A DNA stretch of 5,726 nucleotides from a virus (IMGVR_UViG_2700989507_000005), one strand, 5' to 3'. Counted from the stretch's first letter, positions 765 through 5,726 are shown. Notes: generated from the letters alone by a model not told the origin. Program-made: numbers and translations.

Positions 765-2664
765 TATGATGGCTGCCGTTTCGGTTGCGCTGCAGCCTCT
801 GGTCAGGGTTGTACCAATGACGGCAGTTGAATGGGCTGATCAAAATTATTATCTGCCTAAAGAATCCTCATACGGTGAGGGCGAATGGAAAACGCTGCCA
901 TTCCAGATCGCCATTATGAACTGTATGGGTAACGACCAGGTTCGCACGGTTAACCTGATTAAATCTGCCCGTGTTGGCTATACAAAGATGTTGCTGGGGG
1001 TGGTCGGGTATTTTATTGAGCATAAATCCCGAAACAGTCTGCTTTTTCAGCCCACGGATTCTGCCGCTGAAGATTTTATGAAGTCTCACGTGGAGGCGAC
1101 GATTCGGAACGTGCCATGCCTGAAAGACCTTTCCCCATGGCTGGGTCGTAAACATCGTGACAATACTCTCACGCTGAAACGCTTTTCATCGGGCGTCGGT
1201 TTCTGGTGCCTGGGCGGCGCTGCCGCCAAAAACTACCGTGAAAAATCCGTGGACGTGGTCTGCTATGACGAACTTTCCTCGTTCGAGCCGGATGTCGAAA
1301 AAGAGGGCTCGCCAACCCTGCTGGGGGATAAGCGTATTGAGGGGGCGGTGTGGCCAAAATCCATTCGCGGCTCGACGCCTAAAATCAAAGGCACCTGCCA
1401 GATCGAAAAAGCCGCTAACGAGTCGGCGCATTTTATGCGTTTTTATGTGCCCTGCCCGCACTGTGGGGAGGCGCAGTATCTGAAATTTGGCGATGAGTCC
1501 ACGCCTTTTGGGCTTAAATGGGAGAAGGACAGCCCCGAAAGTGTTTTCTACCTCTGTGAACATCATGGCTGCGTGATCCATCAGTCTGAACTGGACCAGA
1601 GCAACGGGCGGTGGATCTGTGAAAACACGGGCATGTGGACCCGTGACGGTCTGACGTTTTTCAGCGCCCGGGGTGATGAAATTCCGCCGCCGCGCTCCAT
1701 CACGTTCCATATCTGGACGGCGTACAGTCCGTTTACCACCTGGGTACAGATAGTCTATGACTGGCTGGATGCACTGAAAGATCCCAACGGCCTGAAAACC
1801 TTTGTGAACACCACGCTGGGCGAGACCTGGGAAGAAGCCGTGGGCGAAAAACTCGATCACCAGGTACTGATGGATAAGGTGGTGCATTACACGGCGGCGG
1901 TACCTGCCCGGGTGGTTTATCTGACGGCGGGCATTGACTCGCAGCGAAACCGTTTTGAGATGTATGTCTGGGGATGGGCACCGGGAGAGGAAGCTTTTCT
2001 GGTGGATAAAATCATCATTATGGGCCGTCCCGATGAGGAAGAGACGCTGTTACGTGTGGATGCGGCGATCAACAAAAAATACTGCCATGCAGACGGAACC
2101 GAAATGACCATTTCCCGTGTCTGCTGGGACACCGGGGGGATCGATGGTGAAATTGTCTATCAGAGGTCAAAAAAACACGGTGTTTTCCGGGTGCTGCCGG
2201 TAAAAGGCGCATCTGTCTATGGCAAGCCGGTGATCACCATGCCGAAAACCCGCAATCAGCGGGGCGTGTATCTGTGTGAAGTGGGGACGGACACCGCAAA
2301 AGAAATTCTCTATGCCCGTATGAAAGCCGATCCCACTCCTGCGGATGAAGCCACGTCGTATGCCATCCGTTTTCCTGATGATCCGGAGATTTTTTCGCAG
2401 ACAGAGGCGCAGCAACTGGTCGCGGAAGAGCTTGTGGAGAAGTGGGAAAAAGGAAAGATGCGTCTGCTGTGGGATAACAAAAAGCGGCGTAACGAAGCGC
2501 TGGACTGCCTGGTGTATGCCTACGCGGCATTACGTGTGTCCGTGCAACGCTGGCAGCTTGATCTGGCTGTACTGGCAAAATCCCGGGAAGAAGAGACGAC
2601 CCGGCCAACCCTGAAAGAACTGGCAGCGAAGCTGTCCGGAGGAGTGAATGGTTACAGTCGCTGA
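736..2664 (+). CDS. A: Terminase large subunit (gpA-like), 642 aa
   Basis: Start chosen at ATG 736 (MNISEQQLNN...) rather than the ORF-track start at 679, because lambda gpA begins MNISNSQVN and lambda Nu1/A overlap in the same way. Extensive near-collinear similarity to lambda gpA as I recall it (TAVEWADQNYYLPKESSYGEGEWKTLPFQIAIMN; KSARVGYTKMLLGV; GDKRIEGAVWPKSIRGSTPK; HIWTAYSPFTTWVQIV; WDTGGID; KRRNEALDCLVYAYAALR). Length 642 aa versus lambda 641 aa. Stop TGA at 2662-2664. Confidence 0.95.
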   Translation: MNISEQQLNNMMAAVSVALQPLVRVVPMTAVEWADQNYYLPKESSYGEGEWKTLPFQIAIMNCMGNDQVRTVNLIKSARVGYTKMLLGVVGYFIEHKSRNSLLFQPTDSAAEDFMKSHVEATIRNVPCLKDLSPWLGRKHRDNTLTLKRFSSGVGFWCLGGAAAKNYREKSVDVVCYDELSSFEPDVEKEGSPTLLGDKRIEGAVWPKSIRGSTPKIKGTCQIEKAANESAHFMRFYVPCPHCGEAQYLKFGDESTPFGLKWEKDSPESVFYLCEHHGCVIHQSELDQSNGRWICENTGMWTRDGLTFFSARGDEIPPPRSITFHIWTAYSPFTTWVQIVYDWLDALKDPNGLKTFVNTTLGETWEEAVGEKLDHQVLMDKVVHYTAAVPARVVYLTAGIDSQRNRFEMYVWGWAPGEEAFLVDKIIIMGRPDEEETLLRVDAAINKKYCHADGTEMTISRVCWDTGGIDGEIVYQRSKKHGVFRVLPVKGASVYGKPVITMPKTRNQRGVYLCEVGTDTAKEILYARMKADPTPADEATSYAIRFPDDPEIFSQTEAQQLVAEELVEKWEKGKMRLLWDNKKRRNEALDCLVYAYAALRVSVQRWQLDLAVLAKSREEETTRPTLKELAAKLSGGVNGYSR

Positions 2665-2854
2665 ACTACAGGCGCTACGTCAGGCGCGCCTTGATTTATT
2701 AACCGGTAAACGGGTGGTGTCTGTCCAGAAAGATGGTCGCAGAATTGAATATACGGCGGCTTCTCTGGATGAGCTTAACCGGGCGATCAATGATGCGGAG
2801 TCGGTACTGGGGACAACCCGACGTCGCCGTCGTCCGCTGGGAGTGAGGTTATGA
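2648..2854 (+). CDS. W: Head-tail joining / head completion protein (gpW-like), 68 aa
   Basis: ATG at 2648 with GGAGG upstream; 68 aa, the same length as lambda gpW; strong similarity (LTGKRVVSVQKDGRRIEYTAASL versus lambda [23 protein letters not shown]); ends in an RRRRRP basic tail. Overlaps the 3' end of A by 17 nt. Confidence 0.9.
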   Translation: MVTVAELQALRQARLDLLTGKRVVSVQKDGRRIEYTAASLDELNRAINDAESVLGTTRRRRRPLGVRL

Positions 2855-3856
2855 AACGAACGCCTGTCCTGATTGATGTGAACGGCGTTCCGCTTCGTGA
2901 GAGTCTCAGCTACAACGGGGGCGGCGCAGGATTTGGCGGGCAAATGGCGGAGTGGTTGCCACCGGCGCAGAGTGCCGATGCAGCCCTGCTGCCTGCGTTG
3001 CGTCTGGGGAATGCCCGGGCAGATGATCTGGTGCGCAATAACGGGATAGCGGCCAATGCGGTGGCACTGCATAAGGATCATATTGTCGGGCATATGTTTC
3101 TGATCAGCTACCGTCCGAACTGGCGCTGGCTGGGGATGCGGGAGACTGCGGCAAAAAGTTTTGTCGATGAGGTGGAGGCGGCCTGGTCGGAATACGCCGA
3201 AGGGATGTCTGGCGAGATCGACGTGGAAGAGAAACGCACGTTTACGGAATTTATTCGTGAAGGTGTGGGCGTTCATGCGTTTAACGGCGAAATCTTTGTG
3301 CAGCCGGTCTGGGATACGGAGAGCACGCAACTGTTTCGTACGCGTTTTAAAGCCGTGAGTCCGAAACGGGTGGACACGCCAGGACACGGTATGGGGAACC
3401 GTTTTCTGCGGGCCGGGGTGGAGGTCGATCGATATGGCCGTGCCGTTGCGTACCATATCTGTGAGGATGATTTTCCGTTCTCTGGGAGTGGACGATGGGA
3501 ACGGATCCCGCGTGAACTTCCCACCGGGCGTCCGGCCATGCTGCATATTTTCGAGCCGGTGGAGGACGGGCAGACCCGTGGGGCCAATCAGTTTTACAGC
3601 GTAATGGAACGGCTGAAGATGCTCGATTCCCTGCAGGCAACACAGCTTCAGTCGGCCATTGTGAAAGCCATGTATGCAGCGACGATTGAAAGTGAACTTG
3701 ATACCGAAAAGGCCTTTGAATATATCGCCGGCGCGCCACAGGAGCAGAAGGATAATCCGCTTATTAATATTCTGGAGAAGTTCTCCAGCTGGTATGACAC
3801 GAATAGCGTGACGCTGGGCGGAGTCAAAATTCCGCACCTTTTCCCTGGTGATAATC
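2851..3856 (+). CDS. B: Portal protein (gpB-like), N-terminal ~335 aa only; 3' part lies in the N-run
   Basis: ATG at 2851 overlaps the W stop (ATGA). Similarity to lambda gpB (GGGAGFGGQ; DAALLP; GNARADDLVRNNG; ELFVQ..WDT; FEPVEDGQTRGANQFYSVME; LQSAIVKAMYAATIESELDT; GGVKIPHLFPGD). Reading runs into N at 3857; lambda gpB is 533 aa, so about 200 aa are not visible. Confidence 0.9.
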
Positions 3857-3933
3857 NNNNNNNNNNNNNNNNNNNNNNNNNNNNNNNNNNNNNNNNNNNN
3901 NNNNNNNNNNNNNNNNNNNNNNNNNNNNNNNNN
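3857..3933. other. Run of 77 N (undetermined or masked sequence; probable assembly gap)
   Basis: Seen directly. Flanking reading frames are portal N-terminus on the left and prohead protease interior on the right, so the portal 3' end and protease 5' end are missing. Confidence 0.95.
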
Positions 3934-5088
3934 CAGGTGCGGGGCATACTGCTGGACATTGACAGTCCGGGCGGGCAGGCCGCCGGCGCGTTTGACTGCG
4001 CTGACATGATTTACCGCCTCCGTCAGCAGAAGCCGGTCTGGGCACTGTGCAATGACACGGCCTGTTCTGCAGCCATGCTGCTGGCGTCGGCCTGCTCCCG
4101 ACGGCTGGTTACCCAGACATCCCGTATCGGCTCCATTGGCGTGATGATGAGCCATGTCAGCTATGCCGGTCATCTGGCGCAGGCCGGTGTGGATATCACG
4201 CTGATTTACTCAGGGGCGCACAAGGTGGATGGCAATCAGTTTGAAGCCTTACCGGCAGAGGTTCGCCAGGACATGCAGCAGCGCATTGATGCGGCGCGCC
4301 GGATGTTTGCCGAAAAAGTGGCGATGTTTACCGGTCTGTCTGTTGATGCCGTCACGGGAACAGAGGCCGCCGTTTTTGAAGGTCAGTCCGGCATTGAGGC
4401 CGGGCTGGCGGATGAATTAGTCAATGCGTCGGATGCCATCAGTGTGATGGCCACGGCGCTGAACAGTAATGTCAGAGGAGGCACTATGCCGCAATTAACT
4501 GCAACGGAAGCCGCCGCGCAGGAGAACCAGCGAGTGATGGGGATCCTGACATGCCAGGAAGCGAAAGGACGTGAACAGCTTGCCACGATGCTGGCAGGAC
4601 AACAGGGCATGAGCGTTGCACAGGCCCGGGCGATTCTGGCCGCGGCGGCACCGCAGCAGCCGGTGGCATCCACGCAGAGTGAAGCCGATCGCATTATGGC
4701 GTGTGAAGAAGCGAACGGTCGTGAACAACTGGCGGCAACGCTGGCGGCGATGCCGGAGATGACGGTGGAAAAAGCCCGCCCGATCCTGGCTGCTTCACCG
4801 CAGGCGGATGCCGGACCCTCACTCCGTGATCAGATCATGGCACTGGATGAGGCAAAAGGGGCTGAGGCGCAGGCTGAACAACTGGCTGCCTGCCCGGGAA
4901 TGACTGTGGAGAGCGCCCGGGCTGTGCTGGCTGCGGGATCAGGTAAGGCAGAACCGGTCTCTGCATCCACAACCGCCCTGTTTGAACGCATCATGGCGAA
5001 CCATTCACCGGCAGCGGTACAGGGTGGCGTGCCACAGACGTCAGCAGACGGTGATGCGGACGTGAAAATGCTCATGGCCATGCCATGA
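3934..5088 (+). CDS. C: Prohead protease / scaffold protein (gpC-like), C-terminal 384 aa; 5' end lies in the N-run
   Basis: Strong similarity to lambda gpC from the first resolved codon (GILLDIDSPGG...GAFDCADMI...KPVWALCNDTACSAAMLLASACSRRLVTQTSRIGSIGVMM...ITLIYSGAHKVDGN...GLADELVNASDAISVM). This is an S49 / ClpP-fold serine protease signature; the CSA motif aligns with the lambda NCSAG region. Stop TGA at 5086-5088. Confidence 0.9.
   Translation, partial: QVRGILLDIDSPGGQAAGAFDCADMIYRLRQQKPVWALCNDTACSAAMLLASACSRRLVTQTSRIGSIGVMMSHVSYAGHLAQAGVDITLIYSGAHKVDGNQFEALPAEVRQDMQQRIDAARRMFAEKVAMFTGLSVDAVTGTEAAVFEGQSGIEAGLADELVNASDAISVMATALNSNVRGGTMPQLTATEAAAQENQRVMGILTCQEAKGREQLATMLAGQQGMSVAQARAILAAAAPQQPVASTQSEADRIMACEEANGREQLAATLAAMPEMTVEKARPILAASPQADAGPSLRDQIMALDEAKGAEAQAEQLAACPGMTVESARAVLAAGSGKAEPVSASTTALFERIMANHSPAAVQGGVPQTSADGDADVKMLMAMP
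4486..5088 (+). CDS. nu3: Scaffold protein (Nu3-like), nested in-frame within the 3' third of the C-like gene, 200 aa
   Basis: In-frame ATG at 4486 preceded by AGAGGAGG at 4474-4481 (a strong Shine-Dalgarno inside a coding region). Length 200 aa versus lambda Nu3 about 201 aa. Same in-frame nested arrangement and shared stop with C as in lambda (established for lambda; inferred here). Confidence 0.6.
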   Translation: MPQLTATEAAAQENQRVMGILTCQEAKGREQLATMLAGQQGMSVAQARAILAAAAPQQPVASTQSEADRIMACEEANGREQLAATLAAMPEMTVEKARPILAASPQADAGPSLRDQIMALDEAKGAEAQAEQLAACPGMTVESARAVLAAGSGKAEPVSASTTALFERIMANHSPAAVQGGVPQTSADGDADVKMLMAMP

Positions 5089-5124
5089 AGTCAGTGCTGA
5101 TCATCAACAGGAGGTTTTTACAAT

Positions 5125-5475
5125 ATGGTAACGAAAACCATCACTGAACAGCGTGCGGAAGTACGTATTTTTGCCGGTAATGATCCGGCTCATACCGCCA
5201 CAGGCAGCAGCGGGATTTCCTCGGCAACACCGGCACTGACGCCCCTGATGCTGGATGAAGCCAGCGGGAAACTGGTGGTCTGGGACGGACAGAAAGCCGG
5301 TAGTGCAGTTGGCATACTGGTACTGCCGCTTGAAGGCACAGAGACGGTACTGACCTATTACAAGTCGGGGACCTTTGCGACGGAGGCAATCCGCTGGCCT
5401 GAAAGTGTGGATGAACACAAAAAGGCAAATGCCTTTGCCGGCAGTGCCCTGAGTCACGCGGCGCTGCCGTAACAC
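5125..5475 (+). CDS. D: Head decoration protein (gpD-like), 116 aa
   Basis: ATG at 5125 with CAGGAGG at 5108-5114. Similarity to lambda gpD (DPAHTATG; TPLMLDE; KLVVWDG; AVGIL; YYKSGTF; FAGSA). Stop TAA at 5473-5475. Confidence 0.9.
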
Positions 5476-5480
5476 GTTAT

Positions 5481-5500
5481 CAGGCCACCGCGGTGGCCTG
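5481..5500. other. Perfect 20-bp palindrome CAGGCCACCGCGGTGGCCTG in the D-E intergenic spacer; potential RNA stem-loop
   Basis: Seen directly; the sequence equals its own reverse complement. Lies 6 nt after the D stop and 30 nt before the E start. No strong U-tract follows (ACTGATTTCTGAATG), so it is not an obvious intrinsic terminator. Confidence 0.4.
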
Positions 5501-5529
5501 ACTGATTTCTGAATGAAAGGAACTGATTT

Positions 5530-5726
5530 ATGGGATTGTTTACGACCCGCCAGTTACTCGGTTATACCGAACAAAAAGTGAAATTTCGTGCGCTGTTTCT
5601 GGAGCTGTTTTTCCGCCGTACGGTGAATTTCCATACCGAAGAGGTGATGCTGGACAAAATTACCGGAAAAACGCCGGTGGCGGCCTATGTCTCCCCGGTT
5701 GTTGAAGGAAAAGTGCTGCGTCATCG
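5530..5726 (+). CDS. E: Major capsid protein (gpE-like), N-terminal 65 aa; truncated by the window end
   Basis: ATG at 5530 with AAGGA about 8 nt upstream. My translation: MGLFTTRQLLGYTEQKVKFRALFLELFFRRTVNFHTEEVMLDKITGKTPVAAYVSPVVEGKVLRH, similar to the lambda gpE N-terminus (MSMYTTAQLLAANEQKFKFDPLFLRLFFRESYPFTTEKVYLSQIPGLVNMALYVSPIVSGEVIR). Not in the ORF track because no stop is reached within the window. Confidence 0.85.
   Translation, partial: MGLFTTRQLLGYTEQKVKFRALFLELFFRRTVNFHTEEVMLDKITGKTPVAAYVSPVVEGKVLRH

Follow-up and report, generated by a model that had tools for sequence, protein, structure and literature searches.

Three diverged repeats in a phage 21-type scaffold gene: identification as the Tri boxes, an ancient triplication of a module found once in lambda, and a candidate role in capsid binding

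The stretch of DNA analysed here (hereafter the window: 5,726 nucleotides of the virus IMGVR_UViG_2700989507_000005, numbered from the first letter) represents a head-gene module of the lambda/phage 21 type, in which the gene of an S49 prohead protease (gene 5, gpC-type) holds within its own reading frame the gene of a Nu3-like scaffold protein (gene 6, product gp6). By sequence and position we identify the three successive repeats of the translated scaffold region as the Tri1, Tri and Tri3 boxes known from head gene 5/6 of the phage 21 type, and we read them as the outcome of an ancient internal tandem triplication of a module that is present once in lambda. We regard this identity and this evolutionary origin, taken jointly, as practically certain, and we hold with moderate confidence the explanation as a whole, which further considers the repeated units to be capsid-binding beads. 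The features on which the argument draws are as follows (strand in brackets):

4475..4481 (+): Shine-Dalgarno sequence GAGGAGG of the nested scaffold gene, recognised in the sequence 5 nt upstream of the ATG at 4486
4486..5088 (+): gene 6, Nu3-like scaffold open reading frame (ORF) of 200 amino acids (aa), in frame with the protease and sharing its C-terminus; a coding sequence in GenBank M81255.1
4519..4659 (+): Tri1 unit, gp6 aa 12-58 (hidden Markov model, HMM, E = 1.3e-26)
4678..4809 (+): Tri2 unit, gp6 aa 65-108 (HMM E = 2.9e-29)
4819..4950 (+): Tri3 unit, gp6 aa 112-155 (HMM E = 2.7e-27)
4963..5004 (+): tail motif, aa 160-173, TTALFERIMANHSP, a predicted helix that aligns with lambda and phiARM81ld
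5053..5085 (+): short helix or motif at the extreme C-terminus, DADVKMLMAMP, from alignments and a predicted helix (190-196) of low confidence

The identification rests on GenBank M81255.1 ("Bacteriophage 21 head gene operon"), which we take to be the record of Smith & Feiss 1993 (Gene 126:1-7), and which carries inside gene 6 three repeat_region features named "Tri1 box", "Tri box" and "Tri3 box", each noted "function unknown; putative". With a constant offset of 989, the Tri1 box (M81255.1 5542-5645) maps to window 4553-4656, the Tri box (5682-5792) to 4693-4803 and the Tri3 box (5823-5936) to 4834-4947, and all three mapped boxes fall within the HMM-defined units. The surrounding DNA is nearly that of phage 21 (window 3934-5726 equals M81255.1 4923-6715 at 98.2% identity over 1793 nt in blastn), and the gp6 of the window is 97.0% identical to that of phage 21 over 200/200 aa (tblastn against a phage collection). 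The repeats as such are thus already known, having been in GenBank for some three decades, and the original prediction, which had described them as possibly unappreciated, is superseded on this point by the annotation of M81255.1. None of the papers in the literature collection searched uses the term "Tri box".

The three long copies lie where they had been predicted (4531-4653, 4690-4800 and 4831-4941), and the fourth quoted string, ERIMANHSP, is present at 4984-5010. Pairwise local alignments of the three copies gave BLOSUM62 scores of 95, 80 and 97, as compared with 26-27 +/- 5 for composition-preserving shuffles (n=2000), which translates into z = 13.9, 10.5 and 13.8, with 0/2000 shuffles scoring as high as observed. 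Low-complexity Ala/Gln-rich composition, which had been named beforehand as the finding that would overturn the repeats, fails as an explanation because no shuffle attains the observed scores. A unit HMM of 44 positions, built from the three copies, recovers exactly three copies in the window protein (E = 1e-26 to 3e-29); the repeat measures about 45 residues (unit core about 40) and follows the consensus (D/E)xI(L/M)xxxEAKGRExLAxxLAxxPGM(T/S)VxxA(K/R)xxLAAAP, in which I6, E11, A12, G14, R15, A19, L22, A23, M28, A33, L37 and A39 are almost invariant. ERIMANHSP, proposed as a fourth partial copy, scores at z -1.4 to +0.1 against each unit and belongs to a distinct conserved tail motif, which also comes after the single unit of lambda (TALDRLMQGAPAP) and of Aeromonas phage phiARM81ld (the window motif aligning with TALDRLMQG in lambda and TALDRLMED in phiARM81ld). 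The extreme C-terminal DADVKMLMAMP likewise has counterparts, namely LLMSIP in Salmonella relatives and DLLNTPV in lambda.

At the DNA level the copies are strongly diverged: codon-aligned identity between them is 49-60%, third-position identity is 32-36%, and of the 18-23 residues that are identical between copies only 8-9 use the same codon. Tandem Repeats Finder found no array in window 4400-5100, as expected at such identities. This divergence, including that of the third positions, bears out the view that the copies are old; together with the positional orthology described below, it rules out a recent duplication or an assembly artefact.

The origin of the three copies was approached through a unit orthology set of 12 three-copy proteins (gp6-region identity down to ~47% among those aligned). 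Across the 12 lineages the units group by their position in the protein, as Tri1, Tri2 and Tri3, with a mean within-class identity of 0.73, 0.62 and 0.59, respectively, against 0.47-0.55 between classes, and the nearest neighbour in another protein belongs to the same class in 33/36 cases. Among the Tri classes, a 3-residue insertion (VMG) is found in Tri1 only; the single unit of lambda has IMG at this place, and an insertion of this kind occurs in 33/54 single-copy units. Furthermore, Tri1 keeps the N-terminal flank of the lambda unit (AAQENQRVMGIL vs AAENSRIMGIL), and Tri3 keeps its C-terminal flank together with the tail motif. Positional orthology and flank retention hence argue for one ancient internal tandem expansion, without later homogenisation, of a module that lambda possesses in a single copy.

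Purifying selection acts on all three units and is, for Tri1, comparable to that on the protease domain. In comparisons with Gifsy-1 and Trabulsiella, in which the proportion of synonymous differences (pS) is near-saturated, the proportion of nonsynonymous differences (pN) was 0.13 for Tri1, 0.17-0.24 for Tri2 and 0.25 for Tri3, as compared with 0.12-0.19 for the protease domain, 0.28-0.57 for the linkers and 0.47-0.49 for the tail. These values bear directly on the proposal that the units have no specific function, being either a compositional artefact or an inert duplicated Ala-rich spacer. It is true that the region is rich in Ala, Gln and Glu, that lambda works with one copy and that in-frame deletion variants exist; yet composition-preserving shuffles never attain the observed scores, each copy is orthologously conserved in 12 lineages under purifying selection, and a fold is predicted with confidence, so that we rate an absence of function as the least probable of the readings considered here, and by a long way improbable in itself.

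The original prediction had suggested that the triple layout might be a conserved feature of the scaffold family, lambda included, which does not hold: with the unit HMM, a single copy is detected in lambda gpC (residues 357-401, E = 1.2e-18) and likewise in phiARM81ld, against three in phage 21 and Gifsy-1. A genome-contig scan with the protease domain yielded four informative enterobacterial loci only (E. albertii, E. coli, Shigella and Trabulsiella, all with three units) and is not an unbiased sample of copy number, its remaining matches being distant S49 proteins without the unit, mostly from Sporosarcina and related Bacillota. Because of this bias, copy number was taken from a profile search of 1.84 billion representative proteins, which gave 476 hits at E <= 0.001. 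Among the best 150 of these 476 hits, 141 have one unit, six have two and three have three; considering the full-length proteins (>= 380 aa) in the same 150, one unit is found in 53/54 and three in 1/54, and the unit ends at a median of ~50 residues before the C-terminus. Ten unit-bearing proteins scanned with Pfam mostly carry the S49 domain. On these sequence comparisons, a single copy is the rule, and three or four copies are lineage-specific expansions.

Departures from three copies occur on both sides. Among E. coli/Salmonella prophage proteins, Tri2 is cleanly lost in P0021 (L041 25-501), P0018 carries a Tri1/Tri2 hybrid with the junction at AR(A/P)IL (consistent with an in-register crossover), and partial in-frame deletions within Tri2 or Tri3 are seen in P0009, P0011 (53 member sequences), P0016 and P0010; such deletion alleles may stem from decaying prophages. 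A four-unit form (P0031, L040 1-1043, E. coli GCA_032727965.1; a further example is NZ_CP041435.1 2573566-2574309) belongs to a separate E. coli prophage lineage, in which intact homologues of D, E, FI and FII lie downstream of the gene, and 104/5426 complete E. coli genomes cover at least 80% of this query (best identity 99.9%). Its units are 71-79% identical to each other in DNA and 75-92% in protein; since the DNA identity is only 71-79%, the four-unit gene is not an assembly artefact. Moreover, its units U2-U4 are closer to each other (81-92% aa identity) than to Tri2 or Tri3, which suggests a separate expansion, or homogenisation, in that lineage.

Two further sets of unit-bearing proteins were noted. 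P0230 (405 aa) has its unit near the N-terminus (residues 20-64) and has no S49 domain, the unit being followed by ~340 residues that are partly Ala/Glu/Arg-rich and have no Pfam match; it may be a stand-alone scaffold of another architecture or a fusion artefact. In P0143, P0126 and P0127 a tape-measure, tail L or tail U domain is joined to a lambda-type S49 protease, and we rejected these three as natural new contexts of the unit, as they are probably prophage-deletion chimeras or engineered lambda derivatives.

Structure was predicted with AlphaFold2 for the 200-aa gp6 (with 17 relatives) and for Tri2 alone (with 19 unit sequences). The full gp6 model has a mean predicted local distance difference test (pLDDT) score of 66.6 and a predicted template modelling (pTM) score of 0.28, with linkers of low confidence; in each unit, nonetheless, a short helix, another of a single turn and two longer ones are predicted at pLDDT 70-80, and extra helices are placed at 160-173 (the tail motif) and 190-196. 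Tri2 alone reached pLDDT 87.2 and pTM 0.62; its helices span residues 2-8, 16-23 and 30-39. These models fit three independent three-helix mini-domains on a flexible string. The expectation of one small helical unit per repeat is therefore borne out by the models, with three helices in every unit rather than the two of a helix-turn-helix.

Searches against the PDB returned nothing at E <= 0.001 in Foldseek, whether with the full gp6 model or with the single-unit model (best E 6.6, no scaffold protein among the hits), and phmmer gave chance matches to the Lac repressor only (E = 0.3-0.6). The three best matches in BFVD all belong to S49 prohead proteases (of Salmonella phage 37, Synechococcus virus S-ESS1 and an uncultured siphovirus), with template modelling (TM) scores of 0.83-0.87 and a root-mean-square deviation of 1.2-1.4 A over 41-43 residues, at E values (0.14-2.3) that are non-significant for so small a query. 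As all of these top matches are S49 prohead proteases, the unit looks like a widespread appendage of that family. Pfam has no model for the unit and NCBIfam none covering gp6; on the other hand, the unit forms part of PHROG profiles (head maturation protease, head scaffolding protein and capsid assembly protein), and each Tri unit matches the single unit of the PHROG Nu3/scaffold profiles, which gives three matching stretches.

The same searches touch on the possibility that the units are nucleic-acid-binding motifs of the helix-hairpin-helix (HhH) type, to which a weak Pfam HHH match on Tri3 (E = 0.026-0.06), the resemblance of the pattern LxxxPGM(T/S)VxxAxxIL to hairpin-helix motifs and the presence of RuvA among the non-significant Foldseek matches (E = 8.2) could be taken to point. 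The PF00633 score, however, is 13.7-14.8 bits, is obtained for Tri3 only and lies well under the gathering cut-off of 24, on which ground we rejected the assignment; Foldseek against the PDB gave no significant structural match to solved HhH domains, and Tri2 and Tri3 are net acidic (4 K+R vs 8 and 6 D+E, respectively). Furthermore, in lambda assembly the scaffold leaves before or as the DNA enters, which speaks against a DNA-binding role. We consider such a role highly improbable.

Because gene 6 is nested in frame in gene 5, protease and scaffold both carry the three modules, and outside the protease domain no element is better conserved than this module, which makes it an obvious candidate for bringing both proteins into the shell. 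According to the mechanism that we propose, the module would be a three-helix bead that folds on its own and is held by a flexible linker, would bring protease and scaffold into the assembling procapsid via the inner face of the major capsid protein and, with three beads per chain, would provide multivalent attachment of higher avidity; the poorly conserved linkers might serve as cleavage sites for scaffold removal. Two-hybrid interactions of lambda Nu3 with E, with C and with itself have been reported, and Nu3 is needed for the incorporation of the gpB portal into procapsids (PMC3224144). Moreover, helical elements of scaffold proteins bind the capsid protein in P22, herpesviruses, SPP1, phi29 and 80alpha, and those of P22 and the herpesvirus are C-terminal (PMC11565965). 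Repeated change of copy number (1, 2, 3 and 4) is what would be expected of an autonomous binding unit. By analogy with these systems, we advance capsid binding as the specific activity of the module, albeit tentatively.

The lambda interaction data are open to a second interpretation, in which the units would be self-association modules that build the scaffold core through Nu3-Nu3 and Nu3-gpC contacts, another segment (e.g. the C-terminal tail) contacting the capsid. The Nu3-Nu3 and Nu3-C two-hybrid interactions and the reported Nu3 dimer (PMC3224144) are in line with it, as is the occurrence of the module in both protease and scaffold chains, and the conserved hydrophobic face (I6, L18, L22, M28 and L37) could be an interface in addition to a core. 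We nevertheless judge it unlikely, given that the three units do not pack together in the monomer model (pTM 0.28) and that the conserved hydrophobic residues suffice for the core of the mini-domain itself (pLDDT 87 when modelled alone). In a third interpretation, what the units recruit is not the capsid protein but the portal (gp4/gpB) or the initiator complex; lambda Nu3 is indeed required for gpB incorporation, and C-B and Nu3-B are listed among published interactions, although the two-hybrid screen of the same paper found Nu3-E and not Nu3-B (PMC3224144, Table 2 for the published interactions). We hold recruitment of the portal to be quite improbable. Since scaffold copies per particle far exceed portal subunits, a unit that is tripled in each chain fits an abundant partner better.

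Several points weigh against capsid-binding beads. The binding partner is our inference, the boxes being noted in GenBank as "function unknown; putative"; phmmer and Foldseek against the PDB gave no significant match of the unit to solved proteins, the coat-binding helix-turn-helix of P22 included; and the structures are predictions from shallow alignments (17-19 sequences). In addition, lambda shares the tail motif and the extreme C-terminus as well, and these could be the actual capsid-targeting element, a view tempered by their evolving faster than the units. Finally, lambda works with one unit, so that the architecture does not require three, and the two-copy and partially deleted forms come from possibly defective prophages. 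A more general form of the capsid-binding proposal, in which the unit would act as an autonomous procapsid-targeting domain throughout the S49-type prohead proteases, from those of enterobacterial phages to those of cyanophages, its copy number (1, 2, 3 or 4) tuning how many capsid subunits are held per scaffold or protease chain, is possible and somewhat more speculative still. What the present analysis adds to the known boxes is a discrete predicted three-helix domain common to S49 prohead proteases and gpC/Nu3-type proteins, every copy of which is kept by selection, and a catalogue of natural 1-, 2-, 3- and 4-copy alleles, which form a ready-made valency series for finding the capsid-contacting part of Nu3/gpC. 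These results also bear on the engineering of lambda-type phage-like particles, for which a minimal encapsidation tag would be useful.

The placement of the repeats in a Nu3-like scaffold region, nested in an S49 protease gene, was confirmed, and the internal in-frame start with its ribosome-binding site (RBS) is predicted to give a scaffold with the C-terminus of the protease. The window start reads GAGGAGGCACTATG, a putative RBS is annotated at the equivalent position of phage 21 (M81255.1 5464-5468), and the start Met is invariant in 17/17 aligned relatives. A motif of the AGGAGG type also precedes the homologous Met in Gifsy-1 and in lambda, where this residue is gpC Met309 (preceded by CAGGAGGGCGAATG) and gives a product of 131 aa and 13.4 kDa. 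The RefSeq nu3 of lambda (NC_001416; L002 833-1438) instead starts at gpC Met239, which lies inside the protease domain, has a poor upstream Shine-Dalgarno sequence and yields 201 aa (Met309 being at locus position 1043), while the PHROGs hold both a 131-position and a 201-position profile; the RefSeq start may be too far upstream. The similar length of the window ORF and lambda Nu3, from which conservation of the repeat organisation had been argued, is accordingly coincidental, as the homologous lambda start gives 131 aa and not 201. Counted from the common start, the phage 21 protein consists of an 11-residue leader, three units and the tail, and the lambda protein of a 48-residue leader, one unit and the tail.

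The remaining features of the window are as follows:

255-764: Nu1-like small terminase (Phage_Nu1 match)
679-2664: large terminase
2648-2854: gpW (gpW match)
from 2851: lambda-family portal (Phage_portal_2 match)
3857..3933: run of 77 N, replacing ~927 bp (M81255.1 3996-4922)
3934..5088 (+): 3' part (384 codons) of the S49 prohead protease-scaffold gene (gp5/gpC-type; Pfam Peptidase_S49), its 5' part being lost in the N-run
5125-5472: gpD/Shp decoration protein (HDPD match)
after the decoration gene: major capsid gene, start portion only, matching phage 21 gene 7

The order of matches (Phage_Nu1, gpW, Phage_portal_2, Peptidase_S49 and HDPD, followed by the start of the capsid gene) is that of the lambda type, and the protease matches PF01343 with E = 3.3e-35 (121.8 bits vs a cut-off of 24.9) even with its N-terminal third absent owing to the N-run. 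From domain content and gene order, gene 5 of the window is predicted to be an S49 prohead protease of the lambda gpC/Nu3 type with a nested scaffold. Mapping to M81255.1 indicates that the portal lacks its C-terminus, and the protease gene its first 117 codons, under the N-run, which fuses the portal and protease reading frames and hence creates an artefactual ORF of 745 aa at 2851-5088. Upstream of the run, window 810-3856 corresponds to M81255.1 949-3995 (93.8% DNA identity). DNA near-identical to window 3934-5726 occurs in 1917/5426 complete E. coli genomes, and the window therefore represents a common E. coli lambdoid prophage.

The left end is mosaic with respect to phage 21. Window 3-100 matches phage 21 111-207 at 91%, a region that takes in the terminase-binding site annotated at the left end of the chromosome, and the small terminase (255-764) is 40% identical to phage 21 gp1 over its C-terminal 103 residues only, its N-terminal part having no match. 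The large terminase likewise departs from phage 21 in its first 36 residues, and from 810 on the identity is 94-98%. This mosaicism suggests a swapped packaging-recognition (cosB) specificity. Just past the stop of the decoration-protein gene, window 5480-5501 (22 nt) matches phage 21 6469-6490 perfectly in reverse orientation; since the same region aligns to phage 21 in forward orientation too, it is an inverted repeat (GGCCACCGCGGTGGCC core), which probably forms a stem-loop between the shp/D and capsid genes.

Among known systems, the scaffolds of P22, 80alpha, SPP1 and herpesviruses likewise possess, in the C-terminal portion of a protein that is largely disordered, a small helical element (PMC11565965), and are presumably functional analogues. 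As compared with the P22 coat-binding domain, to which it has no detectable sequence or structure similarity, the unit has three helices in place of two and is repeated. P22's coat-binding domain is basic, whereas the unit is net neutral to acidic and is followed by ~45 more residues, not standing at the very end of the protein. Lambda gpC/Nu3 is much closer. There too an S49 protease gene carries the scaffold in frame, the gene order agrees, and the start (preceded by AGGAGG), the unit (gpC 357-401), the tail motif and the C-terminus are each homologous to those of the window; lambda differs in having one unit and, between Met309 and that unit, a 48-residue leader rich in Ser, Thr, Ala and Gln, as against 11 residues in phage 21. 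The four-unit E. coli lineage shares with the window the module, its C-terminal position and the flanking D, E, FI and FII genes, and has four units, not three. Closest of all is phage 21, whose head module is 94-98% identical to that of the window and whose gene 6 is the identical gene, with the same positions and the same three repeats (gp6 97% and DNA 98% identical), from which the window departs by few substitutions and by the mosaic small-terminase end.

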